From positions 1-62,900 of the forward strand of contig JAUCBJ010004355.1 of NCBI GenBank assembly GCA_032718475.1: a stretch of 62,900 bases of DNA, written 5' to 3'. The position numbers and the translations under genes were made by a program. The notes under the pieces were generated by a model that saw nothing but the letters and a program-made list of their open reading frames with translations, did no database searches and was not told the DNA's origin. Of this stretch, positions 279 through 60,265 are shown one piece after another. The stretch is from Nemertoderma westbladi (Eukaryota; Animalia; Xenacoelomorpha). The first letter of the stretch is position 1; every line of letters begins with the position of its first letter.

Positions 279-554
279 CTAGAAAAGGAAACGTTTAACT
301 GTTAATGGGTTGGAGCAGACCCAGTCCCTAGAAAAGGAAACGTTTAACTATTAATGGGTTGGAGCAGACCCAGTCCCTAGAAAAGGAAACGTTTAACTAT
401 TAATGGGTTGGAGCAGACCCAGTCCCTAGAAAAGGAAACGTTTAACTGTTAGTGGGTTGGAGCAGACCCAGTCCCTAGAAAAGGAAACGTTTAACTATTA
501 ATGGGTTGGAGCAGACCCAGTCCCTAGAAAAAGAAACGTTTAACTCTTAATGGG
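261..554 (-). repeat. 49-bp tandem repeat x6 spanning the intron 3' splice site
   Basis: Units start at 261, 310, 359, 408, 457, 506 (+ strand TTGGAGCAGACCCAGTCCCTAGAAAAGGAAACGTTTAACTRTTAATGGG). Minus-strand reading: CCCATTAAYAGTTAAACGTTTCCTTTTCTAG|GGACTGGGTCTGCTCCAA. Confidence 0.95.
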
Positions 555-3500
555 AAATGTACAACGTCCTTGTAGAGAAGGAAGGTTTAATCTTGGTATC
601 GATCTCTTTACCAGCACCCATCTCTCTCCTACTTACTGCGATCTCTTTACCAGCACCCATCTCTCTCCTACTTACTGCGATCTCTTTACCAGCATCCATC
701 TCTCTCCTACTTACTGCGATCTCTTTACCAGCACCCATCTCTCCCCTACTTACTGAGATCTCTTTACCAGCACCCATCTCTCTCCTACTTACTGCGATCT
801 CTTTACCAGCACCCATCTCTCCCCTACTTACTGCGATCTCTTCACCAGCACCCATCTCTCTCCTACTTACTGCGATCTCTTTACCAGCACCCATCTCTCC
901 CCTACTTACTGCGATCTCTTTACCAGCACCCATCTCTCTCCTACTTACTGCCATCTCTTTACCAGCACCCATCTCTCCCCAACTTACTGCGATCTCTTCA
1001 CCAGCACCCATCTCTCCTCCTACTTACTGCGATCTCTTCACCAGCACCCATCTCTCTCCTACTTACTGCGATCTCTTTACCAGCACCCATCTCTCTCCTA
1101 CTTACTGCGATCTCTTTACCAGCACCCATCTCTCCCCAACTTACTGCGATCTCTTCACCAGCACCCATCTCTCCCCTACTTACTGCGATCTCTTTACCAG
1201 CACCCATCTCTCTCCTACTTACTGCGATCTCTTTACCAGCATCCATCTCTCCCCTACTTACTGCGATCTCTTCACCAGCACCCATCTCTCCCCTACTTAC
1301 TGAGATCTCTTTACCAGCACCCATCTCTCTCCTACTTACTGCGATCTCTTTACCAGCATCCATCTCTCCCCTACTTACTGCGATCTCTTTACCAGCACCC
1401 ATATCTCTCCTACTTACTGCCATCTCTTTACCAGCACCCATCTCTCCTCTCTACTCACTGCGATCTCTTTACCAGCACCCATCTCTCTCCTACTTACTGC
1501 GATCTCTTTACCAGCACCCATCTCTCCTCTACTTACTGCCATCTCTTTACCAGCACCCATCTCTCTCCTACTCACTGCGATCTCTTTACCAGCACCCATC
1601 TCTCTCCTACTTACTGCGATCTCTTTACCAGCACCCATCTCTCTCCTACTTACTGCGATCTCTTTACCAGCACCCATCTCTCCTCCTACTTACTGCGATC
1701 TCTTTACCAGCACCCATCTCTCTCCTACTTACTGCGATCTCTTTACCAGCATCCATCTCTCCTCCTACTTACTGCGATCTCTTTACCAGCACCCATCTCT
1801 CCCCTACTTACTGCGATCTCTTTACCAGCACCCATCTCTCTCCTACTTACTGCGATCTCTTTACCAGTACCCATCTCTCCCCAACTTACTGCGATCTCTT
1901 CACCAGCACCCATCTCTCTCCTACTTACTGCGATCTCTTTCACCAGCACCCATCTCTCTCCTACTTACTGCGATCTCTTTACCAGCATCCATCTCTCTCC
2001 TACTTACTGCGATCTCTTTACCAGCACCCATCTCTCCCCAACATACTGCGATCTCTTCGCCAGCACCCATCTCTCCTCCTACTTACTGCGATCTCTTTAC
2101 CAGCATCCATCTCTCCTCCTACTTACTGCGATCTCTTTACCAGCACCCATCTCTCTCCTACTTACTGCGATCTCTTTACCAGCATCCATCTCTCTCCTAC
2201 TTACTGCCATCTCTTTACCAGCACCCATCTCTCCCCAACATACTGCGATCTCTTCACCAGCACCCATCTCTCTCCTACTTACTGCGATCTCTTTACCAGC
2301 ATCCATCTCTCTCCTACTTACTGCCATCTCTTTACCAGCATCCATCTCTCTCCTACTTACAGCGATCTCTTTACCAGCACCCATCTCTCTCCTACTTACT
2401 GCGATCTCTTCACCAGCACCCATCTCTCTCCTACTTACTGCGATCTCTTTACCAGCATCCATCTCTCTCCTACTTACTGCGAACTCTTTACCAGCACCCA
2501 TCTCTCTCCTACTTACTGCGATCTCTTTACCAGCATCCATCTCTCTCCTACTTAATGCGATCTCTTTACCAGCACCCATCTCTCATCTACTCACTGCAAT
2601 CTCTTTACCAGCACCCATCTCTCTCCTACTCACTGCGATCTCTTTACCAGCACCCATGCACCCATCTCTCTCCACTCACTGCGATCTCTTTACCAGCAGC
2701 CATCTTTCCCCTACTTACTGCGATCTCTTCACCAACACCCATCTCTCTCCTACTTAGTGCGATCTGTTCACCAGCACCCATCTCTCCTCTACTTACTGCC
2801 ATCTCTTTACCAGCACCCATCTCTCCTCTACTTACTGCCATCTCTTTACCAGCACCCATCTCTCCTCTACTTACTGCCATCTCTTTACCAGCACCCATCT
2901 CTCCTCTACTTACTGTCTCATCTCTTCACCAGCACCCATCTCTCCTCTACTTACTGCCATCTCTTTACCAGCACCCATCACTCCACTACTTACTGCGATA
3001 TCTTTACCAGCACCATCTCTCCTCTACTTACTGTGATATCTTTACCAGCACCCATCTCTCCTCTACTTAGTGCGATCTCTCTATCAGCACCCATCTCTCA
3101 TCTACTTACTGCGATCTCTTTACCAGCACCCATCTTTCCTCTACTTACTGCGATCTCTTTACCAGCACCCATCTCCCCCCCACTACTTACTGCCATCTCT
3201 TTACCAGCACCCATCTCTCCTCTACTTACTGCGATCTCTTTACCAGCACCCATCTCTCATCTACTTAATGCGATCTCTTTACCAGCACCCATCTTTCCTC
3301 TACTTACTGCGATCTCTTTACCAGCACCCATCTCTCCTCAACTTACTGCGATCTCTTTACCAGCACCCATCTCTCCTCAACTTACTGCGATCTCTTTACC
3401 AGCACCCATCTCTCCTCTCTACTCACTGCGATCACTTTACCAGCACCCATCTCTCTCCTACTTACTGCGATCTCTTTATCAGCACCCATCTCTCCCCTAC

Positions 3501-6500
3501 TTACTGCGATCTCTTTACCAGCACCAATCTCTCCTCTACTTACTGCGATCTCTTTACCAGCATCCATCTCTCTCCTACTTAATGCGATCTCTTTACCAGC
3601 ACCCATCTCTCATCTACTCACTGCAATCTCTTTACCAGCACCCATCTCTCTCCTACTCACTGCGATCTCTTTACCAGCACCCATGCACCCATCTCTCTCC
3701 TACTTACTGCGATCTCTTTACCAGCACCAATCTCTCCTCTACTTACTGCGATCTCTTTACCAGCACCCATATCTCTCCAACATACTGCGATCTCTTTGCC
3801 AGCACCCATCTCTCCTCTACTTACTGCGATCTCTTTACCAGCATCCATCTCTCCTCTCTACTTACTGCGATCACTTTACCAGCACCCATCTCTCTCCTAC
3901 TTACTGCGATCTCTTTACCAGCATCCATCTCTCTCCTACTTACTGCCATCTCTTTACCAGCACCCATCTCTCCCCAACATACTGCGATCTCTTCACCAGC
4001 ACCCATCTCTCTCCTACTTACTGCGATCTCTTTACCAGCATCCATCTCTCTCCTACTTACTGCCATCTCTTTACCAGCATCCATCTCTCTCCTACTTACA
4101 GCGATCTCTTTACCAGCACCCATCTCTCTCCTACTTACTGCGATCTCTTCACCAGCACCCATCTCTCTCCTACTTACTGCGATCTCTTTACCAGCATCCA
4201 TCTCTCTCCTACTTACTGCGAACTCTTTACCAGCACCCATCTCTCTCCTACTTACTGCGATCTCTTTACCAGCATCCATCTCTCTCCTACTTAATGCGAT
4301 CTCTTTACCAGCACCCATCTCTCATCTACTCACTGCAATCTCTTTACCAGCACCCATCTCTCTCCTACTCACTGCGATCTCTTTACCAGCACCCATGCAC
4401 CCATCTCTCTCCACTCACTGCGATCTCTTTACCAGCACCCATCTTTCCCCTACTTACTGCGATCTCTTCACCAACACCCATCTCTCTCCTACTTAGTGCG
4501 ATCTCTTCACCAGCACCCATCTCTCCTCTACTTACTGCCATCTCTTTACCAGCACCCATCTCTCCTCTACTTACTGCCATCTCTTTACCAGCACCCATCT
4601 CTCCTCTACTTACTGCCATCTCTTTACCAGCACCCATCTCTCCTCTACTTACTGTCTCATCTCTTCACCAGCACCCATCTCTCCTCTACTTACTGCCATC
4701 TCTTTACCAGCACCCATCACTCCACTACTTACTGCGATATCTTTACCAGCACCATCTCTCCTCTACTTACTGTGATATCTTTACCAGCACCCATCTCTCC
4801 TCTACTTAGTGCGATCTCTCTATCAGCACCCATCTCTCATCTACTTACTGCGATCTCTTTACCAGCACCCATCTTTCCTCTACTTACTGCGATCTCTTTA
4901 CCAGCACCCATCTCCCCCCCACTACTTACTGCCATCTCTTTACCAGCACCCATCTCTCCTCTACTTACTGCGATCTCTTTACCAGCACCCATCTCTCATC
5001 TACTTAATGCGATCTCTTTACCAGCACCCATCTTTCCTCTACTTACTGCGATCTCTTTACCAGCACCCATCTCTCCTCAACTTACTGCGATCTCTTTACC
5101 AGCACCCATCTCTCCTCAACTTACTGCGATCTCTTTACCAGCACCCATCTCTCCTCTCTACTCACTGCGATCACTTTACCAGCACCCATCTCTCTCCTAC
5201 TTACTGCGATCTCTTTATCAGCACCCATCTCTCCCCTACTTACTGCGATCTCTTTACCAGCACCAATCTCTCCTCTACTTACTGCGATCTCTTTACCAGC
5301 ATCCATCTCTCTCCTACTTAATGCGATCTCTTTACCAGCACCCATCTCTCATCTACTCACTGCAATCTCTTTACCAGCACCCATCTCTCTCCTACTCACT
5401 GCGATCTCTTTACCAGCACCCATGCACCCATCTCTCTCCACTCACTGCGATCTCTTTACCAGCACCAATCTCTCCTCTACTTACTGCGATCTCTTTACCA
5501 GCACCCATATCTCTCCTACTTACTGCGATCTCTTTGCCAGCACCCATCTCTCCTCTACTTACTGCGATCTCTTTACCAGCACCCATCTCTCCTCTCTACT
5601 CACTGCGATCACTTTACCAGCACCCATCTCTCTCCTACTTACTGCGATCTCTTTATCAGCACCCATCTCTCCCCTACTTACTGCGATCTCTTTACCAGCA
5701 CCAATCTCTCCTCTACTTACTGCCATCTCTTTACCAGCACCCATCACTCCACTACTTACTGCGATATCTTTACCAGCACCATCTCTCCTCTACTTACTGT
5801 GATATCTTTACCAGCACCCATCTCTCCTCTACTTAGTGCGATCTCTCTATCAGCACCCATCTCTCATCTACTTACTGCGATCTCTTTACCAGCACCCATC
5901 TTTCCTCTACTTACTGCGATCTCTTTACCAGCACCCATCTCCCCCCCACTACTTACTGCCATCTCTTTACCAGCACCCATCTCTCCTCTACTTACTGCGA
6001 TCTCTTTACCAGCACCCATCTCTCATCTACTTAATGCGATCTCTTTACCAGCACCCATCTTTCCTCTACTTACTGCGATCTCTTTACCAGCACCCATCTC
6101 TCCTCAACTTACTGCGATCTCTTTACCAGCACCCATCTCTCCTCAACTTACTGCGATCTCTTTACCAGCACCCATCTCTCCTCTCTACTCACTGCGATCA
6201 CTTTACCAGCACCCATCTCTCTCCTACTTACTGCGATCTCTTTATCAGCACCCATCTCTCCCCTACTTACTGCGATCTCTTTACCAGCACCAATCTCTCC
6301 TCTACTTACTGCGATCTCTTTACCAGCACCCATATCTCTCCTACTTACTGCGATCTCTTTGCCAGCACCCATCTCTCCTCTACTTACTGCGATCTCTTTA
6401 CCAGCACCCATCTCTCCTCTCTACTCACTGCGATCACTTTACCAGCACCCATCTCTCTCCTACTTACTGCGATCTCTTTATCAGCACCCATCTCTCCCCT

Positions 6501-9500
6501 ACTCACTGCGATCTCTTCACCAGCACCCTTATCTCTCCTACTTACTGCGATCTCTTTACCAGCACCCTTATCTCTCCTACTTACTGCGATCTCTTCACCA
6601 GCACCCATCTCTCCCCTACTTACTGCGATCTCTTTGCCAGCACCCATCTCTCCTCTACTTACTGCGATCTCTTCACCAGCACCCATCTCTCCCCTACTTA
6701 CTGCGATCTCTTTGCCAGCACCCATCTCTCCTCTACTTACTGCGATCTCTTCACCAGCACCCATCTCTCCCCTACTCACTGCGATCTCTTTGCCAGCACC
6801 CATCTCTCCTCTACTTACTGCGATCTCTTTACCAGCACCCATCTCTCCTCTCTACTAACTGCGATCACTTTACCAGCACCCATCTCTCTCCTACTTACTG
6901 CGATCTCTTTATCAGCACCCATCTCTCCCCTACTTACTGCGATCTCTTTACCAGCACCCATCTCTCCTCTACTTACTGCGATATCTTTGCCAGCACCCAT
7001 CTCTCCTCTACTTACTGCGATCTCTTTACCACCACCCATCTCTCCTGTCTACTCACTGCGATCACTTTACCAGCACCCATCTCTCCCCTACTTACTGCGA
7101 TCTCTTTATCAGCACCCATCTCTCCCCTACTTACTGCGATCTCTTTACCAGCACCAATCTCTCCTCTACTTACTGCGATCTCTTTACCAGCACCCATATC
7201 TCTCCTACTTACTGCGATCTCTTTGCCAGCACCCATCTCTCCTCTACTTACTGCGATCTCTTTACCAGCACCCATCTCTCCTCTCTACTCACTGCGATCA
7301 CTTTACCAGCACCCATCTCTCTCCTACTTACTGCGATCTCTTTATCAGCACCCATCTCTCCCCTACTTACTGCGATCTCTTTACCAGCACCAATCTCTCC
7401 TCTACTTACTGCGATCTCTTTACCAGCACCCATCTCTCCCCTACTCACTGCGATCTCTTCACCAGCACCCTTATCTCTCCTACTTACTGCGATCTCTTTA
7501 CCAGCACCCTTATCTCTCCTACTTACTGCGATCTCTTCACCAGCACCCATCTCTCCCCTACTTACTGCGATCTCTTTGCCAGCACCCATCTCTCCTCTAC
7601 TTACTGCGATCTCTTCACCAGCACCCATCTCTCCCCTACTTACTGCGATCTCTTTGCCAGCACCCATCTCTCCTCTACTTACTGCGATCTCTTCACCAGC
7701 ACCCATCTCTCCCCTACTCACTGCGATCTCTTTGCCAGCACCCATCTCTCCTCTACTTACTGCGATCTCTTTACCAGCACCCATCTCTCCTCTCTACTAA
7801 CTGCGATCACTTTACCAGCACCCATCTCTCTCCTACTTACTGCGATCTCTTTATCAGCACCCATCTCTCCCCTACTTACTGCGATCTCTTTACCAGCACC
7901 CATCTCTCCTCTACTTACTGCGATATCTTTGCCAGCACCCATCTCTCCTCTACTTACTGCGATCTCTTTACCACCACCCATCTCTCCTGTCTACTCACTG
8001 CGATCACTTTACCAGCACCCATCTCTCCCCTACTTACTGCGATCTCTTTATCAGCACCCATCTCTCCCCTACTTACTGCGATCTCTTCACCAGCACCCAT
8101 CTCTCCCCTACTCACTGCGATCTCTTTGCCAGCACCCATCTCTCCTCTACTTACTGCGATCTCTTTACCAGCACCCATCTCTCCTCTCTACTCACTGCGA
8201 TCACTTTACCAGCACCCATCTCTCCCCTACTTACTGCGATCTCTTTACCAGCACCCATCTCTCCTCTACTTACTGCGATATCTTTGCCAGCACCCATCTC
8301 TCCTCTACTTACTGCGATCTCTTTACCACCACCCATCTCTCCTGTCTACTCACTGCGATCACTTTACCAGCACCCATCTCTCCCCTACTTACTGCGATCT
8401 CTTTATCAGCACCCATCTCTCCCCTACTTACTGCGATCTCTTTACCAGCACCAATCTCTCCTCTACTTACTGCGATCTCTTTACCAGCACCCATATCTCT
8501 CCTACTTACTGCGATCTCTTTGCCAGCACCCATCTCTCCTCTACTTACTGCGATCTCTTTACCAGCACCCATCTCTCCTCTCTACTCACTGCGATCACTT
8601 TACCAGCACCCATCTCTCTCCTACTTACTGCGATCTCTTTATCAGCACCCATCTCTCCCCTACTTACTGCGATCTCTTTACCAGCACCAATCTCTCCTCT
8701 ACTTACTGCGATCTCTTTACCAGCACCCATCTCTCCCCTACTCACTGCGATCTCTTCACCAGCACCCTTATCTCTCCTACTTACTGCGATCTCTTTACCA
8801 GCACCCTTATCTCTCCTACTTACTGCGATCTCTTCACCAGCACCCATCTCTCCCCTACTTACTGCGATCTCTTTGCCAGCACCCATCTCTCCTCTACTTA
8901 CTGCGATCTCTTCACCAGCACCCATCTCTCCCCTACTTACTGCGATCTCTTTGCCAGCACCCATCTCTCCTCTACTTACTGCGATCTCTTCACCAGCACC
9001 CATCTCTCCCCTACTCACTGCGATCTCTTTGCCAGCACCCATCTCTCCTCTACTTACTGCGATCTCTTTACCAGCACCCATCTCTCCTCTCTACTAACTG
9101 CGATCACTTTACCAGCACCCATCTCTCTCCTACTTACTGCGATCTCTTTATCAGCACCCATCTCTCCCCTACTTACTGCGATCTCTTTACCAGCACCCAT
9201 CTCTCCTCTACTTACTGCGATATCTTTGCCAGCACCCATCTCTCCTCTACTTACTGCGATCTCTTTACCACCACCCATCTCTCCTGTCTACTCACTGCGA
9301 TCACTTTACCAGCACCCATCTCTCCCCTACTTACTGCGATCTCTTTATCAGCACCCATCTCTCCCCTACTTACTGCGATCTCTTCACCAGCACCCATCTC
9401 TCCCCTACTCACTGCGATCTCTTTGCCAGCACCCATCTCTCCTCTACTTACTGCGATCTCTTTACCAGCACCCATCTCTCCTCTCTACTCACTGCGATCA

Positions 9501-12500
9501 CTTTACCAGCACCCATCTCTCTCCTACTTACTGCGATCTCTTTATCAGCACCCATCTCTCCCCTACTTACTGCGATCTCTTTACCAGCACCCATCTCTCC
9601 CCTACTTACTGCGATATCTTTACCAGCACCCATCTCTCTCCTACTTACTGCGATCTCTTTACCAGTACCCATCTCTCCTCTACTTACTGCGATCTCTTTA
9701 CCAGCACCCATCTCTCCTCTCTACTCACTGCGATCACTTTACCAGCACCCATCTCTCTCCTACTTACTGCGATCTCTTTATCAGCACCCATCTCTCCCCT
9801 ACTTACTGCGATCTCTTTACCAGCACCCATCTCTCTCCTACTTACTGCGATCTCTTCACCAGCACCCATCTCTCCTCTACTTACTGCGATATCTTTACCA
9901 GCACCCATCTCTCCCCTACTCACTGCGATCTCTTCACCAGCACCCTTATCTCTCCTACTTACTGCGATCTCTTCACCAGCACCCATCTCTCCCCTACTTA
10001 CTGCGATCTCTTTACCAGCATCCATATCTCTCCTACTTACTGCGATCTCTTTACCAGCACCCATCTCTCTCCTACTTACTGCGATCTCTTTACCAGCATC
10101 CATCTCTCCCCTACTTACTGCGATCTCTTTGCCAGCACCCATCTCTCCTCTACTTACTGCCATCTCTTCACCAGCACCCATCTCTCCTCTACTTACTGCG
10201 ATCTCTTTACCAGCACCCATCTCTCTCCTACTTAATGCGATCTCTTTACCAGCACCCATCTCTCTCCTACTCACTGCGATCTCTTTACCAGCATCCATCT
10301 CTCTCCTACTTACTGCGATATTTTACCAGCACCCATCTCTCCTCTACTTACTGCCATCTCTTTACCAGCTCCCATCTCTCTCCGACTTACTGCGATCTTT
10401 TACCAGCACCCATCCCTCTCTCTCTCCTACTCACTGCGATCTCTTTACCAGCACCCATCTCTCCTCTACTTACTGCGATCTCTTTGCCAGCACCCATCTC
10501 TCCTCTACTTACTGCGATCTCTTTACCAGCACCCATCTCTCTCCTACTCACTGCGATCTCTTTACTAGCACCCATCTTTCCCCTACTTACTGCCATCTCT
10601 TTACCAGCTCCCATCTCTCTCCGACTTACTGCGATCTTTTACCAGCAGCCATCTCTCCTCTACATACTGCCATCTCTTTACCAGCACCCATCTCTCTCTC
10701 TCTCCTACTCACTGCGATCTCTTTACCAGCACCCATGCACCCATCTCTCTCCTACTCACTGCGATCTCTTTATCAGCACCCATCTCTCCCCTACTTACTG
10801 CGATCTCTTTACCAGCACCCATCTCTCCCCTACTTACTGCGATATCTTTACCAGCACCCATCTCTCTCCTACTTACTGCGATCTCTTTACCAGTACCCAT
10901 CTCTCCTCTACTTACTGCGATCTCTTTACCAGCACCCATCTCTCCTCTCTACTCACTGCGATCACTTTACCAGCACCCATCTCTCTCCTACTTACTGCGA
11001 TCTCTTTATCAGCACCCATCTCTCCCCTACTTACTGCGATCTCTTTACCAGCACCCATCTCTCTCCTACTTACTGCGATCTCTTCACCAGCACCCATCTC
11101 TCCTCTACTTACTGCGATCTCTTTACCAGCACCCATCTCTCCCCTACTCACTGCGATCTCTTCACCAGCACCCTTATCTCTCCTACTTACTGCGATCTCT
11201 TCACCAGCACCCATCTCTCCCCTACTTACTGCGATCTCTTTACCAGCATCCATATCTCTCCTACTTACTGCGATCTCTTTACCAGCACCCATCTCTCTCC
11301 TACTTACTGCGATCTCTTTACCAGCATCCATCTCTCCCCTACTTACTGCGATCTCTTTGCCAGCACCCATCTCTCCTCTACTTACTGCCATCTCTTCACC
11401 AGCACCCATCTCTCCTCTACTTACTGCGATCTCTTTACCAGCACCCATCTCTCTCCTACTTAATGCGATCTCTTTACCAGCACCCATCTCTCTCCTACTC
11501 ACTGCGATCTCTTTACCAGCATCCATCTCTCTCCTACTTACTGCGATATTTTACCAGCACCCATCTCTCCTCTACTTACTGCCATCTCTTTACCAGCTCC
11601 CATCTCTCTCCGACTTACTGCGATCTTTTACCAGCACCCATCCCTCTCTCTCTCCTACTCACTGCGATCTCTTTACCAGCACCCATCTCTCCTCTACTTA
11701 CTGCGATCTCTTTGCCAGCACCCATCTCTCCTCTACTTACTGCGATCTCTTTACCAGCACCCATCTCTCTCCTACTCACTGCGATCTCTTTACTAGCACC
11801 CATCTTTCCCCTACTTACTGCCATCTCTTTACCAGCTCCCATCTCTCTCCGACTTACTGCGATCTTTTACCAGCAGCCATCTCTCCTCTACATACTGCCA
11901 TCTCTTTACCAGCACCCATCTCTCTCTCTCTCCTACTCACTGCGATCTCTTTACCAGCACCCATGCACCCATCTCTCTCCTACTCACTGCGATCTCTTTA
12001 CCAGCACCCATCTCTCTCCTACTCACTGCGATCTCTTTACCAGCATCCATCTCTCTCCTACTTACTGCCATCTCTTTACCAGCATCCATCTCTCTCCTAC
12101 TTACTGCGATCTCTTTACCAGCACCCATATTTCCCCTACTTACAGCGATCTCTTTACCCGCACGCATCTGTCTCCTACTTACTGCGATCTCTTTACCAGC
12201 ACCCATCTCTCTCCTACTTACTGCGATCTCTTTACCAGCACCCATCTCTCTCCTACTTAATGCGATATTTTACCAGCACCCATCTCTCCTCTACTTACTG
12301 CCATCTCTTTACCAGCTCCCATCTCTCTCCGACTTACTGCGATCTTTTACCAGCACCCATCCCTCTCTCTCTCCTACTCACTGCGATCTCTTTACCAGCA
12401 CCCATGCACCCATCTCTCTCCTACTCACTGCGATCTCTTTACTAGCACCCATCTCTCCCCTACTTACTGCCATCTCTTTACCAGCTCCCATCTCTCTCCG

Positions 12501-24500: not shown

Positions 24501-27500
24501 ACCAGCACCCATCTCTCATCTACTCACTGCAATCTCTTCACCAGCACCCATCTCTCTCCTACTTACTGCGATCTCTTTACCAGCATCCATCTCTCTCCAA
24601 CTTACTGCGATCTCTTCACCAGCACCCATCTCTCTCCTACTTACTGCGATCTCTTTACCAGCATCCATCTCTCCTCTACTTACTGCGATATCTTTACCAG
24701 CACCATCTCTCCTCTACTTAATGCGATCTCTTTATCAGCACCCATCTCTCCCCTACTTACTGCGATCTCTTTACCAGCACCAATCTCTCCTCTACTTACT
24801 GCCATCTCTTTACCAGCATCCATATCTCTCCTACTTACTGAGATCTCTTTACCAGCACCCATCTCTCATCTACTCACTGCAATCTCTTCACCAGCACCCA
24901 TCTCTCTCCTACTTACTGCGATCTCTTTACCAGCATCCATCTCTCTCCAACTTACTGCGATCTCTTCACCAGCACCCATCTCTCTCCTACTTACTGCGAT
25001 CTCTTTACCAGCATCCATCTCTCTCCTACTTACTGCGATCTCTTTACCAGCATCCATCTCTCTCCTACTTACTGCGATCTCTTTACCTGCATCCATCTCT
25101 CCTCTACTTACTGCGATCTCTTTATCAGCACCCATCTCCCTCCTACTTACTGAGATCTCTTTACCAGCATCCATCTCTCTCCTACTTACTGCGACCTCTT
25201 TACCAGCACCCATCTCTCTCCTACTTACTGCGATCTCTTTACCAGCACCCATCTCTCTCCTACTTACTGCGACCTCTTTACCAGCACCCATCTCTCTCCT
25301 ACTTACTGCGATCTCTTTACCTGCATCCATCTCTCCTCTACTTACTGCGATCTCTTTATCAGCACCCATCTCCCTCCTACTTACTGAGATCTCTTTACCA
25401 GCATCCATCTCTCTCCTACTTACTGCGACCTCTTTACCAGCACCCATCTCTCTCCTACTTACTGCGACCTCTTTACCAGCACCCATCTCTCTCCTACTTA
25501 CTGCGACCTCTTTACCAGCACCCATCTCTCTCCTACTTACTGCGATCTCTTTACCAGCACCCATCTCTCCCCTACTTACTGAGATCTCTTTACCAGCACC
25601 CATATCTCCCCTACTTACTGCGATCTCTTTACCAGCATCCATCTCTCATCTACTTACTGCGATCTCTTTACCAGCATCCATATCTCTCCTACTTACTGCG
25701 ATCTCTTTACCAGTACCCATCTATCTCCTACTTACTGAGATCTCTTTACCTGCATCCATCTCTCTCCTACTTACTGCGATCTCTTTACCAGCATCCATCT
25801 CTCTCCTACTTACAGCGATCTCTTTACCAGCACCCATCTCTCTCCTCTACTTAGTGCGACCTCTTTACCAGCACCCATCTCTCTCCTACTTACTGCGACC
25901 TCTTTACCAGCACCCATCTCTCTCCTACTTACTGCGATCTCTTTACCAGCACCCATCTCTCCCCTACTTACTGAGATCTCTTTACCAGCACCCATCTCTC
26001 CCCTACTTACTGAGATCTCTTTACCAGCATCCATCTCTCTCCTACTTACTGCGATCTCTTTATCAGCACCCATATCTCCCCTACTTACTGCGATCTCTTT
26101 ACCAGCATCCATATCTCTCCTACTTACTGCGATCTCTTTATCAGCACCCATCTCTCATCTACTTACTACGACCTCTTTACCAGCACCCATCTCTCCCCTA
26201 CTTACTGAGATCTCTTTACCAGCACCCATCTCTCCCCTACTTACTGAGATCTCTTTACCAGCACCCATCTCTCCCCTACTTACTGAGATCTCTTTACCAG
26301 CATCCATCTCTCTCCTACTTACTGCGATCTCTTTATCAGCACCCATATCTCCCCTACTTACTGCGACCTCTTTACCAGCACCCATCTCTCTCCTACTTAC
26401 TGCGATCTCTTTACCAGCACCCATCTCTCCCCTACTTACTGAGATCTCTTTACCAGCACCCATCTCTCCCCTACTTACTGAGATCTCTTTACCAGCACCC
26501 ATCTCTCCCCTACTTACTGAGATCTCTTTACCAGCATCCATCTCTCTCCTACTTACTGCGATCTCTTTATCAGCACCCATATCTCCCCTACTTACTGCGA
26601 TCTCTTTACCAGCATCCATATCTCTCCTACTTACTGCGATCTCTTTATCAGCACCCATCTCTCATCTACTTACTACGACCTCTTTATCAGCACCCATCTC
26701 TCATCTACTTACTACGACCTCTTTACCAGCACCCATCTCTCTCCTACTTACTGCGATCTCTTTACCAGCACCCATCTCTCCCCAACTTACTGCGATCTCT
26801 TCACCAGCACCCATCTCTCTCCTACTTACTGCGATCTCTTTACCTGCATCCATCTCTCCTCTACTTAGTGCGACCTCTTTACCAGCACCCATCTCTCCCC
26901 TACTTACTGAGATCTCTTTACCAGCATCCATCTCTCTCCTACTTACTGCGATCTCTTTATCAGCACCCATATCTCCCCTACTTACTGCGATCTCTTTACC
27001 AGCATCCATATCTCTCCTACTTACTGCGATCTCTTTATCAGCACCCATCTCTCATCTACTTACTACGACCTCTTTACCAGCACCCATCTCTCTCCTACTT
27101 ACTGAGATCTCTTTACCAGCATCCATCTCTCTCCTACTTACTGCGATCTCTTCACCAGCACCCATCTCTCCCCTATTTACTGCGATCTCTTCACCAGCAC
27201 CCATCTCTCCCCTATTTACTGCGATCTCTTTACCAGCATCCATCTCTCTCCTACTTACTGCGATCTCTTTACCTGCATCCATCTATCCTCTACTTACTGC
27301 GATCTCTTTACCAGCATCCATCTCTCTCCTACTTACTGCGATCTCTTTACCAGCATCCATCTCTCTCCTACTTACTGAGATCTCTTTACCAGCATCCATC
27401 TCTCTCCTACTTACTGCGATCTCTTTACCTGCATCCATCTCTCCTCTACTTAATGCGATCTCTTTATCAGCACCCATATCTCCCCTACTTACTGCGATCT

Positions 27501-30500
27501 CTTTACCAGCATCCATCTCTCCTCTACTTACTGCGATCTCTTTACCAGCATCCATCTCTCTCCTACTTACTGCGATCTCTTTATCAGCACCCATCTCTCT
27601 CCTACTTACTGCGATCTCTTTACCTGCATCCATCTATCCTCTACTTACTGCGATCTCTTCACCAGCACCCATCTCTCTCCTACTTACTGCGAACTCTTTA
27701 CCAGCACCCATATCTCTCCTACTTACTGCGATCTCTTTACCAGCACCCATCTCTCTCCTACTTACTGCGATCTCTTTACCTGCATCCATCTCTCTCCTAC
27801 TTACTGCCATCTCTTTACCAGCATCCATCTCTCCCCTATTTACTGCGATCTCTTTACCAGCACCCATCTCTCTCCTACTTACTGCGATCTCTTTACCTGC
27901 ATCCATCTCTCTCCTACTTACTGCCATCTCTTTACCAGCACCCATCTCTCCCCTATTTACTGCGATCTCTTTACCAGCACCCATCTCTCTCCTACTTACT
28001 GCGATCTCTTTACCTGCATCCATCTCTCTCCTACTTACTGCCATCTCTTTACCAGCACCCATCTCTCTCCTACTTACTGCGATCTCTTTACCTGCATCCA
28101 TCTATCCTCTACTTACTGCGATCTCTTCACCAGCACCCATCTCTCTCCTACTTACTGCGATCTCTTTACCAGCACCCATCTCTCCTCTACTTACTGCGAT
28201 ATCTTTACCAGCACCCATCTCTCCTCTACTTACTGCGATCTCTTTACCAGCACCCATCTCTCTCCTACTTACTGCGATCTCTTTACCTGCATCCATCTCT
28301 CTCCTACTTACTGCGATCTCTTTACCTGCATCCATCTATCCTCTACTTACTGCGATCTCTTCACCAGCACCCATCTCTCCCCTATTTACTGCGATCTCTT
28401 TACCAGCACCCATCTCTCTCCTACTTACTGCGATCTCTTTACCTGCATCCATCTCTCTCCTACTTACTGCGATCTCTTCACCAGCACCTATCTCTCCTCT
28501 ACTTACTGCGATATCTTCACCAGCACCCATATCTCCCCTACTTACTGCCATCTCTTTACCAGCACCCATCTCTCTCCTACTTACTGCGATCTCTTTACCT
28601 GCATCCATCTATCCTCTACTTACTGCGATCTCTTCACCAGCACCCATCTCTCCCCTATTTACTGCGATCTCTTTACCAGCACCCATCTCTCTCCTACTTA
28701 CTGCGATCTCTTTACCTGCATCCATCTCTCTCCTACTCACTGAGATCTCTTTACCTGCATCCATCTATCCTCTACTTACTGCGATCTCTTCACCAGCACC
28801 CATCTCTCCCCTATTTACTGCGATCTCTTTACCAGCACCCATCTCTCCCCTACTTACTGCGATCTTTTACCAGCACCCATCTCTCTCCTACTTACTGCGA
28901 TCTCTTTACCAGCATCCATCTCTCTCCTACTTACTGCGATCTCTTTACCTGCATCCATCTATCCTCTACTTACTGCGATCTCTTCACCAGCACCCATCTC
29001 TCTCCTACTTACTGCGATCTCTTTACCAGCATCCATCTCTCCCCTACTCACTGCGATATCTTCACCAGCACCCATATCTCTCCTACTTACTGCGATCTCT
29101 TTACCAGCACCCATCTCTCCTCTACTTACTGCGATCTCTTTACCAGCACCCATCTCTCCCCTACTTACTGCGATCTCTTTACCAGCATCCATCTCTCTCC
29201 TACTTACTGCGATCTCTTTACCTGCATCCATCTATCCTCTATTCACTGCGATCTCTTTACCAGCACCCATCTCTCTCCTACTTACTGCGATCTCTTTACC
29301 TGCATCCATCTCTCTCCTACTTACTGCGATCTCTTCACCAGCACCCATCTCTCCCCTATTTACTGCGATCTCTTCACCAGCACCCATCTCTCCCCTATTT
29401 ACTGCGATCTCTTTACCAGCATCCATCTCTCTCCTACTTACTGCGATCTCTTTACCTGCATCCATCTATCCTCTACTTACTGCGATCTCTTTACCAGCAT
29501 CCATATCTCCTCTACTTAATGCGATCTCTTTATCAGCACCCATCTCTCCCCTACTTACTGCAATCTCTTTACCAGCATCCATCTCTCTCCTACTTACTGC
29601 GATCTCTTTACCTGCATCCATCTATCCTCTACTTACTGCGATCTCTTTACCAGCATCCATCTCTCTCCTACTTACTGCGATCTCTTTACCAGCATCCATC
29701 TCTCTCCTACTTACTGAGATCTCTTTACCAGCATCCATCTCTCTCCTACTTACTGCGATCTCTTTACCAGCATCCATCTCTCTCCTACTTACTGAGATCT
29801 CTTTACCAGCATCCATCTCTCTCCTACTTACTGCGATCTCTTTACCAGCATCCATCTCTCTCCTACTTACTGAGATCTCTTTACCAGCATCCATCTCTCT
29901 CCTACTTACTGCGATCTCTTTACCTGCATCCATCTCTCCTCTACTTAATGCGATCTCTTTATCAGCACCCATCTCTCCCCTACTTACTGCGATCTCTTTA
30001 CCAGCATCAATCTCTCTCCTACTTACTGCGATCTCTTTACCTGCATCCATCTATCCTCTACTTACTGCGATCTCTTTACCAGCATCCATCTCTCTCCTAC
30101 TTACTGCGATCTCTTTACCAGCATCCATCTCTCTCCTACTTACTGAGATCTCTTTACCAGCATCCATCTCTCTCCTACTTACTGCGATCTCTTTACCTGC
30201 ATCCATCTCTCCTCTACTTAATGCGATCTCTTTATCAGCACCCATCTCTCCCCTACTTACTGCGATCTCTTTACCAGCATCCATCTCTCTCCTACTTACT
30301 GCGATCTCTTTACCTGCATCCATCTATCCTCTACTTACTGCGATCTCTTTACCAGCACCCATCTCTCTCCTACTTACTGCGATCTCTTCACCAGCACCCA
30401 TCTCTCCCCTACTTACTGCATCTCTTTACCAGCACCCATCTCTCTCCTACTTACTGCGATCTCTTTACCTGCATCCATCTATCCTCTACTTACTGCGATC

Positions 30501-33500
30501 TCTTTACCAGCATCCATCTCTCTCCTACTTACTGCGATCTCTTTACCAGCATCCATCTCTCTCCTACTTACTGAGATCTCTTTACCAGCATCCATCTCTC
30601 TCCTACTTACTGAGATCTCTTTACCAGCATCCATCTCTCTCCTACTTACTGCGATCTCTTTACCTGCATCCATCTCTCCTCTACTTAATGCGATCTCTTT
30701 ATCAGCACCCATCTCTCCCCTATTTACTGCGATCTCTTCACCAGCACCCATCTCTCCCCTATTTACTGCGATCTCTTTACCAGCATCCATCTCTCTCCTA
30801 CTTACTGCGATCTCTTTACCTGCATCCATCTCTCCTCTACTTACTGCCATCTCTTTACCAGCATCCATATCTCTCCTACTTACTGAGATCTCTTTACCAG
30901 CACCCATCTCTCATCTACTCACTGCAATCTCTTCACCAGCACCTATCTCTCTCCTACTTACTGCGATCTCTTTACCAGCATCCATCTCTCTCCTACTTAC
31001 TGCGATCTCTTTACCTGCATCCATCTCTCCTCTACTTACTACGACCTCTTTACCAGCACCCATATCTCCCCTACTTACTGCGATCTCTTTACCAGCATCC
31101 ATCTCTCCTCTACTTACTGCGATCTTTTTACCAGCATCCATCTCTCTCCTACTTACTGCGATCTCTTTATCAGCACCCATCTCTCTCCTACTTACTGCGA
31201 TCTCTTTACCTGCATCCATCTATCCTCTACTTACTGCGATCTCTTTACCAGCACCCATCTCTCTCCTACTTACTGCGATCTCTTTACCAGCATCCATCTC
31301 TCTCCTACTTACTGCGATCTCTTTACCTGCATCCATCTATCCTCTACTTACTGCGATCTCTTTACCAGCATCCATCTCTCTCCTACTTACTGCGATCTCT
31401 TTACCAGCATCCATCTCTCTCCTACTTACTGAGATCTCTTTACCAGCATCCATCTCTCTCCTACTTACTGCGATCTCTTTACCTGCATCCATCTCTCCTC
31501 TACTTAATGCGATCTCTTTATCAGCACCCATATCTCCCCTACTTACTGCGATCTCTTTACCAGCATCCATCTCTCCTCTACTTACTGCGATCTCTTTACC
31601 AGCATCCATCTCTCCTCTACTTACTGCGATCTCTTTACCAGCACCCATCTCTCTCCTTCTTACTGCGATCTCTTCACCAGCACCCATCTCTCCCCTACTT
31701 ACTGCGATCTCTTTACCAGCACCCATCTCCCTCCTACTCACTGCGATCTCTTTACCAGCATCCATCTCTCTCCTACTTACTGCGATCTCTTTACCTGCAT
31801 CCATCTCTCCTCTACTTAATGCGATCTCTTTATCAGCACCCATATCTCCCCTACTTACTGCGATCTCTTTACCAGCATCCATCTCTCCTCTACTTACTGC
31901 GATCTCTTTACCAGCACCCATCTCTCCTCTACTTACTGCGATCTCTTTACCAGCATCCATCTCTCTCCTACTTACTGCGATCTCTTTACCTGCATCCATC
32001 TCTCCTCTACTTACTGCGATCTCTTTACCAGCATCCATCTCTCTCCTACTTACTGCGATCTCTTTACCTGCATCCATCTCTCCTCTACTTAATGCGATCT
32101 CTTTATCAGCACCCATATCTCCCCTACTTACTGCGATCTCTTTACCAGCATCCATCTCTCCTCTACTTACTGCGATCTCTTTACCAGCACCCATCTCCCT
32201 CCTACTTACTGCCATCTCTTTACCAGCACCCATCTCTCCTCTACTTACTGCGATCTCTTTACCAGCATCCATCTCTCTCCTACTTACTGCGATCTCTTTA
32301 CCTGCATCCATCTCTCCTCTACTTAATGCGATCTCTTTATCAGCACCCATATCTCCCCTACTTACTGCGATCTCTTTACCAGCATCCATCTCTCCTCTAC
32401 TTACTGCGATCTCTTTACCAGCATCCATCTCTCTCCTACTTACTGCGATCTCTTTATCAGCACCCATCTCTCTCCTACTCACTGCGATCTCTTTACCAGC
32501 ACCCATCTCTCTCCTACTCACTGCGATCTCTTTACCAGCACCCATCTCTCTCCTACTCACTGCGATCTCTTTACCAGCACCCATCTCTCCTCTACTTACT
32601 GCGATCTCTTTACCAGCACCCATATCTCCCCTACTTACTGCGATCTCTTTACCAGCATCCATCTCTCTCCTACTTACTGCGATCTCTTTACCTGCACCCA
32701 TCTCTCCCCTACTTACTGCCATCTCTTTACCAGCACCCATCTCTCTCCTACTCACTGCGATCTCTTTACCAGCACCCATCTCTCTCCTACTCACTGCGAT
32801 CTCTTTACCAGCACCCATCTCTCTCCTACTCACTGCGATCTCTTTACCAGCACCCATCTCTCTCTATCTCCTACTTACTGCGATCTCTTTACCTGCATCC
32901 ATCTCTCCTCTACTTACTGCGACCTCTTTACCAGCACCCATCTCTCTCCTACTCACTGCGATCTCTTTACCAGCACCATCTCTCCTCTACTTAATGCGAT
33001 CTCTTTATCAGCACCCATATCTCCCCTACTTACTGCGATCTCTTTACCAGCACCCATCTCTCCCCTACTTACTGCCATCTCTTTACCAGCATCCATCTCT
33101 CCTCTACTTAGTGCGACCTCTTTACCAGCACCCATCTCTCCCCTACTTACTGCCATCTCTTTACCAGCACCCATCTCTCTCCTACTCACTGCGATCTCTT
33201 TACCAGCACCCATCTCTCTCCTACTTACTGCCATCTCTTTACCAGCACCCATCTCTCTCCTACTCACTGCGATCTCTTTACCAGCACCCATCTCTCTCCT
33301 ACTTACTGCCATCTCTTTACCTGCACCCATCTCTCCCCTACTTACTGCCATCTCTTTACCAGCACCCATCTCTCTCCTACTCACTGCGATCTCTTTACCA
33401 GCACCCATCTCTCTCCTACTTACTGAGATCTCTTTACCAGCACCCATCTCTCCCCTACTTACTGCGATCTCTTTACCAGCACCCATCTCTCCCCTACTTA

Positions 33501-36500
33501 CTGCCATCTCTTTACCAGCATCCATCTCTCCTCTACTTAGTGCGACCTCTTTACCAGCACCCATCTCTCCCCTACTTACTGAGATCTCTTTACCAGCACC
33601 CATCTCTCCCCTACTTACTGCGATCTCTTTACCAGCACCCATCTCTCTCCTACTTACTGCGATCTATTTACCAGCACCCATATCTCACCTACTCACTGCG
33701 ATCTCTTTACCTGCATCCATCTCTCTCCTACTCACTGCGATCTCTTTACCTGCATCCATCTCTCCCCTACTTACTGCGATCTCTTTACCAGCACCCATCT
33801 CTCCTCTACTTAATGCGATCTCTTTATCAGCACCCATATCTCCCCTACTTACTGCGATCTCTTTACCAGCACCCATCTCCCTCCTACTTACTGAGATCTC
33901 TTTACCAGCATCCATCTCTCTCCTACTCACTGCGATCTCTTTACCTGCACCCATCTCTCTCCTACTTACTGCGATCTCTTCATCAGCACCCATCTCTCCT
34001 CTACTTACTGCGACCTCTTTATCAGCACCCATCTCTCTCCTACTTACTGCGATCTCTTTACCTGCATCCATCTATCCTCTACTTACTGCGATCTCTTTAC
34101 CAGCATCCATCTCTCCTCTACTTAATGCGATCTCTTTATCAGCACCCATCTCCCTCCTACTTACTGAGATCTCTTTACCAGCACCCATCTCCCTCCTACT
34201 TACTGAGATCTCTTTACCAGCACCCATCTCTCTCCTACTTACTGAGATCTCTTTACCAGCATCCATCTCTCTCCTACTTACTGAGATCTCTTTACCAGCA
34301 TCCATCTCTCTCCTACTTACTGAGATCTCTTTACCAGCATCCATCTCTCTCCTACTTACTGCGATCTCTTTACCTGCATCCATCTCTCCTCTACTTAATG
34401 CGATCTCTTTATCAGCACCCATCTCTCCCCTATTTACTGCGATCTCTTCACCAGCACCCATCTCTCCCCTATTTACTGCGATCTCTTTACCAGCATCCAT
34501 CTCTCTCCTACTTACTGCGATCTCTTTACCTGCATCCATCTCTCCTCTACTTACTGCCATCTCTTTACCAGCATCCATATCTCTCCTACTTACTGAGATC
34601 TCTTTACCAGCACCCATCTCTCATCTACTCACTGCAATCTCTTCACCAGCACCTATCTCTCTCCTACTTACTGCGATCTCTTTACCAGCATCCATCTCTC
34701 TCCTACTTACTGCGATCTCTTTACCTGCATCCATCTCTCCTCTACTTACTACGACCTCTTTACCAGCACCCATATCTCCCCTACTTACTGCGATCTCTTT
34801 ACCAGCATCCATCTCTCCTCTACTTACTGCGATCTTTTTACCAGCATCCATCTCTCTCCTACTTACTGCGATCTCTTTATCAGCACCCATCTCTCTCCTA
34901 CTTACTGCGATCTCTTTACCTGCATCCATCTATCCTCTACTTACTGCGATCTCTTTACCAGCACCCATCTCTCTCCTACTTACTGCGATCTCTTTACCAG
35001 CATCCATCTCTCTCCTACTTACTGCGATCTCTTTACCTGCATCCATCTATCCTCTACTTACTGCGATCTCTTTACCAGCATCCATCTCTCTCCTACTTAC
35101 TGCGATCTCTTTACCAGCATCCATCTCTCTCCTACTTACTGAGATCTCTTTACCAGCATCCATCTCTCTCCTACTTACTGCGATCTCTTTACCTGCATCC
35201 ATCTCTCCTCTACTTAATGCGATCTCTTTATCAGCACCCATATCTCCCCTACTTACTGCGATCTCTTTACCAGCATCCATCTCTCCTCTACTTACTGCGA
35301 TCTCTTTACCAGCATCCATCTCTCCTCTACTTACTGCGATCTCTTTACCAGCACCCATCTCTCTCCTACTTACTGCGATCTCTTCACCAGCACCCATCTC
35401 TCCCCTACTTACTGCGATCTCTTTACCAGCACCCATCTCCCTCCTACTCACTGCGATCTCTTTACCAGCATCCATCTCTCTCCTACTTACTGCGATCTCT
35501 TTACCTGCATCCATCTCTCCTCTACTTAATGCGATCTCTTTATCAGCACCCATATCTCCCCTACTTACTGCGATCTCTTTACCAGCATCCATCTCTCCTC
35601 TACTTACTGCGATCTCTTTACCAGCACCCATCTCTCCTCTACTTACTGCGATCTCTTTACCAGCATCCATCTCTCTCCTACTTACTGCGATCTCTTTACC
35701 TGCATCCATCTCTCCTCTACTTACTGCGATCTCTTTACCAGCATCCATCTCTCTCCTACTTACTGCGATCTCTTTACCTGCATCCATCTCTCCTCTACTT
35801 AATGCGATCTCTTTATCAGCACCCATATCTCCCCTACTTACTGCGATCTCTTTACCAGCATCCATCTCTCCTCTACTTACTGCGATCTCTTTACCAGCAC
35901 CCATCTCCCTCCTACTTACTGCCATCTCTTTACCAGCACCCATCTCTCCTCTACTTACTGCGATCTCTTTACCAGCATCCATCTCTCTCCTACTTACTGC
36001 GATCTCTTTACCTGCATCCATCTCTCCTCTACTTAATGCGATCTCTTTATCAGCACCCATATCTCCCCTACTTACTGCGATCTCTTTACCAGCATCCATC
36101 TCTCCTCTACTTACTGCGATCTCTTTACCAGCATCCATCTCTCTCCTACTTACTGCGATCTCTTTATCAGCACCCATCTCTCTCCTACTCACTGCGATCT
36201 CTTTACCAGCACCCATCTCTCTCCTACTCACTGCGATCTCTTTACCAGCACCCATCTCTCTCCTACTCACTGCGATCTCTTTACCAGCACCCATCTCTCC
36301 TCTACTTACTGCGATCTCTTTACCAGCACCCATATCTCCCCTACTTACTGCGATCTCTTTACCAGCATCCATCTCTCTCCTACTTACTGCGATCTCTTTA
36401 CCTGCACCCATCTCTCCCCTACTTACTGCCATCTCTTTACCAGCACCCATCTCTCTCCTACTCACTGCGATCTCTTTACCAGCACCCATCTCTCTCCTAC

Positions 36501-39500
36501 TCACTGCGATCTCTTTACCAGCACCCATCTCTCTCCTACTCACTGCGATCTCTTTACCAGCACCCATCTCTCTCTATCTCCTACTTACTGCGATCTCTTT
36601 ACCTGCATCCATCTCTCCTCTACTTACTGCGACCTCTTTACCAGCACCCATCTCTCTCCTACTCACTGCGATCTCTTTACCAGCACCATCTCTCCTCTAC
36701 TTAATGCGATCTCTTTATCAGCACCCATATCTCCCCTACTTACTGCGATCTCTTTACCAGCACCCATCTCTCCCCTACTTACTGCCATCTCTTTACCAGC
36801 ATCCATCTCTCCTCTACTTAGTGCGACCTCTTTACCAGCACCCATCTCTCCCCTACTTACTGCCATCTCTTTACCAGCACCCATCTCTCTCCTACTCACT
36901 GCGATCTCTTTACCAGCACCCATCTCTCTCCTACTTACTGCCATCTCTTTACCAGCACCCATCTCTCTCCTACTCACTGCGATCTCTTTACCAGCACCCA
37001 TCTCTCTCCTACTTACTGCCATCTCTTTACCTGCACCCATCTCTCCCCTACTTACTGCCATCTCTTTACCAGCACCCATCTCTCTCCTACTCACTGCGAT
37101 CTCTTTACCAGCACCCATCTCTCTCCTACTTACTGAGATCTCTTTACCAGCACCCATCTCTCCCCTACTTACTGCGATCTCTTTACCAGCACCCATCTCT
37201 CCCCTACTTACTGCCATCTCTTTACCAGCATCCATCTCTCCTCTACTTAGTGCGACCTCTTTACCAGCACCCATCTCTCCCCTACTTACTGAGATCTCTT
37301 TACCAGCACCCATCTCTCCCCTACTTACTGCGATCTCTTTACCAGCACCCATCTCTCTCCTACTTACTGCGATCTATTTACCAGCACCCATATCTCACCT
37401 ACTCACTGCGATCTCTTTACCTGCATCCATCTCTCTCCTACTCACTGCGATCTCTTTACCTGCATCCATCTCTCCCCTACTTACTGCGATCTCTTTACCA
37501 GCACCCATCTCTCCTCTACTTAATGCGATCTCTTTATCAGCACCCATATCTCCCCTACTTACTGCGATCTCTTTACCAGCACCCATCTCCCTCCTACTTA
37601 CTGAGATCTCTTTACCAGCATCCATCTCTCTCCTACTCACTGCGATCTCTTTACCTGCACCCATCTCTCTCCTACTTACTGCGATCTCTTCATCAGCACC
37701 CATCTCTCCTCTACTTACTGCGACCTCTTTATCAGCACCCATCTCTCTCCTACTTACTGCGATCTCTTTACCTGCATCCATCTATCCTCTACTTACTGCG
37801 ATCTCTTTACCAGCATCCATCTCTCCTCTACTTAATGCGATCTCTTTATCAGCACCCATCTCCCTCCTACTTACTGAGATCTCTTTACCAGCACCCATCT
37901 CCCTCCTACTTACTGAGATCTCTTTACCAGCACCCATCTCCCTCCTACTTACTGAGATCTCTTTACCAGCACCCATCTCTCTCCTACTTACTGCGATCTC
38001 TTTACCAGCACCCATCTCTCTCCTACTTACTGCGACCTCTTTACCAGCACCCATCTCTCCTCTACTTACTGCGACCTCTTTACCAGCACCCATCTCTCCT
38101 CTACTTACTGCGATCTCTTCACCAGCACCCATCTCTCCTCTACTTACTGCGATCTCTTTACCAGCATCCATCTCTCTCCTACTTACTGCGATCTCTTTAC
38201 CAGCACCCATCTCTCTCCTACTTACTGCGACCTCTTTACCAGCACCCATCTCTCCTCTACTTACTGCGACCTCTTTACCAGCACCCATCTCTCCTCTACT
38301 TACTGCGATCTCTTCACCAGCACCCATCTCCCCTCTACTTACTGCGATCTCTTTACCAGCATCCATCTCTCTCCTACTTACTGCGATCTCTTTACCAGCA
38401 TCCATCTCTCTCCTACTTACTGCGATCTCTTTACCTGCATCCATATCTCCCCTACTTACTGCGATCTCTTTACCAGCATCCATATCTCTCCTACTTACTG
38501 CGATATCTTTACCAGCATCCATCTCTCCTCTACTTACTGCGATCTCTTTACCAGCACCCATCTCTCCTCTATTTACTGCGATCTCTTTACCAGCACCCAT
38601 CTCTCCTCTACTTACTGCCATCTCTTTACCAGCATCCATATCTCTCCTACTTACTGCGATCTCTTCACCAGCACCCATCTCTCCTCTACTTACTGCGATC
38701 TCTTTACCAGCACCCATCTCTCCTCTATTTACTGCGATCTCTTTACCAGCACCCATCTCTCCCCTACTTACTGCCATCTCTTTACCAGCATCCATATCTC
38801 TCCTACTTACTGCGATCTCTTTACCAGCATCCATCTCTCTCCTACTTACTGAGATCTCTTTACCAGTACCCATCTCTCTCCTACTTACTGCGATCTCTTT
38901 ACCAGTACCCTTCTCTCTCCTACTTACTGCGATCTCTTTACCTGCATCCATCTCTCCTCTACTTAATGCGATCTCTTTACCAGCACCCATCTCTCCTCTA
39001 TTCACTGCGATCTCTTTACCAGCATCCATATCTCTCCTACTTACTGAGATCTCTTTACCAGCACCCATCTCTCTCCTACTTACTGCCTACTGCGATCTCT
39101 TTATCAGCACCCATCTCTCTCCTACTTACTGCCTACTGCGATCTCTTTATCAGCACCCATCTCTCCCCTATTCACTGCGATCTCTTTACCAGCATCCATA
39201 TCTCTCCTACTTACTGAGATCTCTTTACCAGCACCCATCTCTCCCCTACTTACTGAGATCTCTTTACCAGCACCCATCTCTCTCCTACTTACTGCCTACT
39301 GCGATCTCTTTATCAGCACCCATCTCTCCCCTATTCACTGCGATCTCTTTACCAGCATCCATATCTCTCCTACTTACTGAGATCTCTTTACCAGCACCCA
39401 TCTCTCCCCTACTTACTGAGATCTCTTTACCAGCACCCATCTATCCCCTACTTACTGCGATCTCTTTACCAGCATCCATCTCTCCCCTACTTACTGCGAT

Positions 39501-39533
39501 CTCTTTACCTGCATCCATCTCTCTCATACTTAC
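279..39533 (-). other. UBE2J1: Giant phase-2 GT-AG intron of the UBE2J1-like gene (39,255 bp)
   Basis: Donor CGCA|GTAAGTAT at 39533 and acceptor TTTTCTAG|G at 279. Splicing restores ...VLAKRSQDWVCSNCG..., collinear with recalled UBE2J1 ...ALAKKSQDFCCEGCG. Confidence 0.85.
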
Positions 39534-39562
39534 TGCGATCTCTTTGCCAGCACCCGTCTCTC
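600..39562 (-). repeat. 39-bp minisatellite array, ~1000 copies, derived from the exon/5' splice-site junction
   Basis: + strand consensus CGATCTCTTTACCAGCACCCATCTCTCTCCTACTTACTG; minus strand GAGAGATGGGTGCTGGTAAAGAGATCGCA|GTAAGTAGGA. Copy number estimated as length/39. Contains indel variants and kb-scale higher-order duplications. Confidence 0.97.
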
Positions 39563-48333: not shown

Positions 48334-48335
48334 GC

Positions 48336-60260: not shown

Positions 60261-60265
60261 CCCTC

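Follow-up and report, generated by a model that had tools for sequence, protein, structure and literature searches.

A UBE2J1 intron of Nemertoderma westbladi composed almost entirely of tandem copies of its own splice junctions

The window analyzed here is a stretch of 62,900 nucleotides from the xenacoelomorph Nemertoderma westbladi (GenBank assembly GCA_032718475.1, contig JAUCBJ010004355.1, positions 1 to 62,900 of the forward strand). On its minus strand it carries two exons of UBE2J1, separated by an intron that consists almost wholly of tandem repeats. The main features are listed below in the direction of the gene, each with the evidence that places it; a slash in a motif marks the exon-intron boundary, and X1 to X4 are sequencing runs.

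39682..62900, minus strand: probable upstream UBE2J1 intron, longer than 23 kb (upstream exon end present in X4, absent from the window)
39534..39681, minus strand: UBE2J1 internal exon, 148 nt (G-HHPETW...ERRVLAKRS-Q), whose last 29 nt seed the donor array (homologs; X4 contig)
39526..39533, minus strand: authentic 5' splice site, CA/GTAAGTAT (the sole GTAAGTAT in the array)
600..39562, minus strand: 39-bp donor-spanning minisatellite with 901 GTRAGT motifs (TRF; contigs of runs X1, X2 and X3)
555..599, minus strand: unique 45-bp spacer separating both repeats (TRF; X2 contig 505-629)
260..554, minus strand: 49-bp acceptor-spanning minisatellite, 6.0 copies (TRF)
within 260..554, minus strand: candidate acceptors before 523, 474, 425, 376 and 327 (decoys) and before 278 (used) (X4 loose end)
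92..278, minus strand: next UBE2J1 exon (DWVCSNCG...ELASQISF...) (tblastn, HMM, X4 contig)

The exon upstream of the array had been assigned to UBE2J1 in a first-pass annotation made from the DNA letters, and the homology searches confirmed that assignment: 962 of 1009 candidates matched at E<=1e-3, the best 120 listed were 81-87% identical, and there were matches to UBE2J2 and Ubc6 in the PDB. The exon that begins at 278 extends the alignment with homologs in frame (best tblastn E 2e-5, HMM E 2e-6); its 5' end at 278 is shown directly, and its 3' end is placed tentatively near 92 from a CAG/GT just before an in-frame stop. A UBC domain sequence is present and includes the KICLSISGHHPE active-site region with its presumed active-site cysteine, the end of the upstream exon being supplied by X4. 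Searches of the 62,900-nt window by tblastn with 120 homologs and by HMM gave no match to the N-terminal part of UBE2J1, and the 20 letters of the upstream exon end recovered from X4 had no match in the window at up to three mismatches. The upstream intron, which is probably longer than 23 kb, would likely hold an 8.4-kb minisatellite (39932-48329) and, nested on the opposite strand, a SorLA-like gene. At its end (39682-39727, minus strand), an in-frame stretch reading ...KIWL-ISG gives a weak alignment with KICLSISG, the true end of the exon, and may represent either a decayed older junction duplication or a chance likeness at a proto-splice site.

The intron between the two exons runs from 39533 to 279 on the minus strand and measures 39,255 bp, of which 38,934 bp belong to the donor array (99.2%), 276 bp to the acceptor repeat (0.7%) and 45 bp are unique. 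The unit structure described in the first-pass annotation was borne out by our unit parse and by TRF: the first 39-bp unit comprises the 29 terminal nucleotides of the exon and 10 intron nucleotides (GTAAGTATGA, minus strand), the 49-bp unit comprises 30 intron nucleotides ending in TTCTAG and the first 19 nucleotides of the next exon (minus strand), and only about 45 bp (555-599) is unique. TRF reports 992.7 copies with 90% matches for the 39-bp array (600-39562) and 6.0 copies with 97% matches for the 49-bp array (260-554). The accompanying proposal that both boundaries had been amplified holds insofar as each is tandemly copied; the two do not contribute equally, as 99% of the inflation lies on the donor side, and what had been called a matching acceptor array turns out to be an ordinary repeat of six copies and 295 bp. 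A contig of run X2 matching 505-629 bridges the acceptor copy, the spacer and the array end with a single difference.

The unit parse resolved 993 units in the 39-bp array, 190 of them distinct, with a length of exactly 39 nt in 895 of the 993 and a mean pairwise divergence of 8.7%; the array as a whole is 74% purine. Its consensus differs from the exon copy by near-fixed changes at positions 7, 17 and 37 of the unit, and the array unit is therefore a derived copy of the exon-end unit. A final unit truncated to 27 nt and cut before its donor closes the array, which means either that the far end of the array was cut or that the seed was something other than a plain duplication. The ancestral intron length is therefore not readable by subtraction, which yields at least about 85 nt, and the ancestor of roughly 100 bp proposed in the first-pass annotation is a conjecture. 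Regarding the intron in relatives, runs X6 and X7, which come from other organisms, contained 0 contigs on the exon at 80% likeness. In some 46-nt unit variants of the array (39045-39328, minus strand), 7 nt of the donor are themselves duplicated (GCAGTAG GCAGTAAGT), so that one repeat is nested within another.

Eight sequencing runs were listed, and the neighboring stretch was present in five of them. The evidence for splicing comes from one contig of one run, X4, which bears the guessed label 'DNA?' among runs none of which is recorded as RNA. This contig, 1202 nt long with a depth of 3141.7, matches 39533-39685 with 0 differences, does not cover 39692-39930, and continues on either side of the exon into a loose end. 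The downstream loose end corresponds to window positions 248-277, which lie beyond the last acceptor copy and occur once in the window; the upstream one reads, by eye, EVATKICLSI, matching the end of the upstream exon in homologs. In the spliced form, the first donor is thus connected with the last acceptor (39534 to 278, with exon bounds 39681-39534), so that the junction proposed by the first-pass annotation as a check was found, and this mRNA-like contig is spliced at the authentic, outermost sites. Since X4 is spliced at both junctions and has 0 contigs on 480-680, unlike X1 (104), X2 (494) and X3 (29), we infer that it is RNA; contigs drop minor isoforms, and this zero is no proof that the decoys are idle. 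The unspliced form is carried by one contig of X1.

Because the X4 contig contains this junction of the outermost sites together with the upstream active-site exon, UBE2J1 is likely functional at this locus. An alternative is that the locus is a dead fragment and that the spliced sequence originates in a retrocopy or in a second, intact UBE2J1 locus, which would suit both the absence of the upstream exons from the window and the lack of an RNA record for X4. We consider this very improbable, as the X4 contig equals the window exon with 0 differences in 153 nt and the next exon is exact over 30 nt, both exons are open and conserved, and X1 has a single unique contig over the exon for which no other letters are listed.

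The reality and length of the array were assessed from its internal variation and from contig depths. Variants are shared in nested blocks at offsets of 3710, 5947, 6694, 5828, 1739, 1297 and 1228 bp (the nested block duplications span an offset range of 0.9-6.7 kb), with only 2 differences in 3710 bp for the block at offset 3710, and the 39-kb array thus displays the length and higher-order blocks of a satellite family. X1 is possibly the source DNA; its unique contig has a depth of 15.1 and its deepest listed repeat contig one of 2014.3, a ratio of 133, with the caution, issued by the tool itself, that contig depth is no copy number. In the assembly, the best even-depth counterpart of that repeat contig occurs 114 times and the most frequent 31-mer 187 times. 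A haploid baseline for the X1 depth would allow at most about 1.7-fold inflation. Among the 13 X1 records, five have a close even-depth counterpart in the assembly, two have one that is near and outside the filter, and six have none, each record having had 4-114 candidate strings, which makes single matches weak.

It is against this background that we weighed the alternative of an array that is real but much shorter, with blocks duplicated by the assembler. Exact internal repeats of 2572, 1854, 1680 and 1549 bp would fit such duplication, as would the summed contig depth, which is 150,000 in X1, 74,000 in X2 and 4,100 in X3 versus 486,556 in a simulated de Bruijn graph, a total not matchable to simplified contigs. 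The depths are also unstable: X2 and X3, two runs of one sample, lie 18-fold apart, the depth of X3 being scaled on a repeat contig, and this instability equally affects the unequal depth-scaled areas of X1 and X2 as a gauge of length variation between alleles or individuals. On the other side, exact re-copies of at least 500 bp make up 14,311 of the 38,963 array bases, and when these are set aside 24,652 bp (about 629 units) persist; the X1 depth ratio also stands at 133 against 114 assembly copies. We therefore regard a much shorter array as quite unlikely. The X1 contig depth and the nested variant blocks argue against a large assembly inflation, and the concern that the array might be mainly an expansion of the assembly is answered to that extent: tens of kilobases of it are real, and its exact length is unproven.

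The copies retain much of what a splice site needs. GT is kept in 845 of the 894 full-length decoy donor units, TTCTAG is kept in all five decoy acceptors, which retain their polypyrimidine tract and AG, and the consensus change at position 17 creates a second GT in most units. Moreover, 76 CAG/GTAAAG sites in the array pair with the U1 5' end better than the true donor does (-8.3 vs -7.5 kcal/mol, calculated with a U1 5' end motif that we assume for this organism), and the first of these lies only 25 nt downstream of the true donor. Altogether, 81 sites besides the true donor score equal to it or better among 3635 GT sites. Donor strength was thus rejected as a sufficient explanation for site choice. 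These 76 decoys outpair the true donor, which leads the common decoy by 0.3 kcal/mol, so it is probably position, through exon definition, and not strength that favors the outer sites; no other copy shares the +8 base of the true donor, and a small strength advantage conferred by that base is conceivable.

Published cases point in the same direction. Human F7 carries 5-9 identical donors and splices from the first of them alone, even where those downstream are stronger, as described in passages of PMC1557585. Similarly, passages of PMC9225289 report that, where flanking introns are long, splicing favors the sites nearest each other across the exon, which here would mean the first donor and the last acceptor. 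For 3' sites, the same source speaks of a weakened preference for the upstream one under exon definition, not of a reversed one, and the choice of the sixth and last acceptor is therefore less well explained than that of the donor. The motif upstream of the acceptor is CTAAC at the decoy at 425 and TTAAC at the used site. The passages of PMC8724738 that we considered hold nothing on the choice between duplicated sites.

A further possibility is that the copies are in fact used, either in a nested stepwise removal that proceeds from inner decoys outward or in a regulated use of decoys that tunes UBE2J1 via nonsense-mediated decay. The retained donor and acceptor signals would be in keeping with this, the outer sites would stay intact after an inner splice, and CBS and 6-16 employ two further donors according to passages of PMC1557585. 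However, the window offers only six acceptors and the array contains no pyrimidine-rich internal acceptor, which limits such a process to at most six steps; joining the last acceptor to a decoy donor would bring the process to a halt with a stop in the product; and the donor hexamer, with 6 variant alleles in 6 positions vs 1.36 per position elsewhere, gives no clear sign of conservation. On balance, we judge use of the copies to be distinctly improbable. In frame, a stop codon follows in four of four translated decoy pairings. Recursive (ratchet) splicing inside the array was likewise rejected: there are 76 CAG/GT motifs, but none of the 2037 YAG in the donor array is acceptor-like, that is, preceded by more than 6 pyrimidines in 15 nt.

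Both boundaries of the intron show a head-to-tail repeat whose boundary unit spans the exon-intron junction, and the copies keep their splice signals; the UBE2J1 array is a giant, spliced case of the class of junction-spanning minisatellites known as 'mirages' or F7-type VNTRs. In amphioxus, mirage minisatellites are described for Adh3, the globins BflGb6 and BflGb9, troponin C and PGBD5 (passages of PMC3087553 and PMC3902484), and they leave splicing undisturbed (PMC3087553). The first-pass annotation had called an array of this size with a matching acceptor array unfamiliar; amphioxus mirages occur at both boundaries (PMC3087553), and repeats across an acceptor are thus known as well. As far as these passages go, the mirages share with UBE2J1 the head-to-tail units across 5' and 3' exon-intron boundaries, the splice signals retained in most copies, a normally spliced mRNA and a boundary copy that differs from the inner ones. 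In contrast, BflGb6 has 3 and 6 units, where UBE2J1 has 993 (39 kb), and UBE2J1 differs further in its kilobase block duplications and in the repetition of both ends of one intron.

Human VNTRs that span a donor, as covered in passages of PMC1557585, include F7 IVS7 (37 bp, 5-9 copies), the 6-16 gene (25 pseudo-sites), CBS IVS13 (15-20 copies), LMNB2 (100 bp, 10-15 copies) and PDGF (81 bp, 16-18 copies). In these, as in UBE2J1, the true donor lies in the first unit and is repeated by downstream copies, and in F7, LMNB2 and PDGF the most upstream site is likewise the one used. Against their 5-25 copies, UBE2J1 has about 40 times more than the largest case listed, along with a near-fixed second GT in most units and an acceptor repeat at the other end. 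Satellite repeats also fill introns of the Drosophila Y genes kl-3 and kl-5, where the repeated sequences are simple satellites that bear no relation to the exon boundary. In UBE2J1, by comparison, the unit comes from the gene's own junction, and the gene encodes a broadly conserved E2 enzyme. The kl-3 and kl-5 introns, megabase-sized (PMC6508621 and PMC11207136), resemble the UBE2J1 intron in being nearly all tandem repeat and still spliced. A literature search with most subscription journals and supplements outside its scope found no comparable giant junction-spanning array. What is new in the UBE2J1 array is its scale, the type of repeat being already known.

Our preferred reading, which we consider well supported and probable, is that of a UBE2J1 intron in which the donor unit was copied about 993 times and the acceptor unit six times, and in which the spliceosome likely ignores the copies, the exon being defined by the nearest sites across it. 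Short tandem duplications may arise often in the N. westbladi genome, and those that straddle a boundary would survive, since their extra copies would be intronic to the outermost sites and would be removed by splicing. One derived donor unit, bearing the three near-fixed changes, could then have grown by repeated unequal exchange or slippage, presumably unit by unit at first and later in blocks of 1-6 kb, while the exon copy would have stayed under coding constraint. With long introns flanking a 148-nt exon, the first donor would win by position and further copies would cost little; rare use of a decoy would lead to premature stops and probable clearance by nonsense-mediated decay. The giant repeat is thus likely harmless to the gene.

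On this account, one true donor stands before about 900 look-alikes and one true acceptor behind five, and a conserved quality-control gene still gives rise to a correctly joined sequence; such tolerance exceeds what was known by more than an order of magnitude. The intron therefore offers a natural test of position versus strength, above all for acceptors, where upstream preference rules. It also indicates that a mirage can reach satellite size within an expressed gene, which by itself shows no new mechanism.

A more far-reaching proposal, which we hold to be unlikely, is that a splice junction seeds a self-licensing array of satellite size: as the intron lengthens, exon definition would lock the outermost sites, so that added decoys would be free. 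Junction seeds would then be over-represented among the giant arrays of this lineage, and nested re-splicing at the duplicated junctions might help to remove the 39-kb intron. The window contains nine TRF repeats with a period of at least 19, two of which span junctions; none of the other seven lies on a located junction. When repeats were placed at random in the collapsed window (200,000 trials), at least two spanning repeats were obtained in 0.6-1.4% of trials and repeats at both ends of one intron in 0.07-0.16%, figures for which three of the six junctions were inferred and which, the window having been picked for the feature, say nothing on genome-wide enrichment. As to the route to satellite birth suggested in the first-pass annotation, the only non-repeat flanks of the 39-mer listed in X1 and X2 are those of UBE2J1 itself.

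The second minisatellite of the window (39932-48329) has a 44/45-bp unit present in about 189 copies over 8.4 kb, with a GC content of 58%. It starts 250 bp from the nearest junction and touches none, and large arrays therefore also grow in N. westbladi without a junction seed. Derivation of its unit from the nearby exon or its flanks was rejected, as local alignment scores of 9-10 compare with shuffle means of 8.8-9.4 and maxima of 14-16. Additionally, two 21-bp arrays accompanied by scattered single copies (49841-50107 and 50596-50716) share a common core in opposite orientations (GAACTTAGATCC / GGATCTAAGTTC) and resemble subterminal repeats such as an inverted-repeat element might leave on decaying.

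The SorLA/SORL1-like gene occupies 52879-60261 on the plus strand and has an uninterrupted reading frame of about 2,270 codons, followed by what is likely its sole intron (59696-60186) and by a short terminal exon. Its protein shares 35-39% identity with the best 120 hits and forms a very long branch in a tree built by a quick method from 21 rows, with 20 of the 120 listed hits. Vertebrate SORL1 has dozens of introns, and the N. westbladi gene is possibly a retrocopy or the product of wholesale intron loss. Its coding sequence also contains an in-frame tandem duplication of 30 bp, at window positions 58701-58760.
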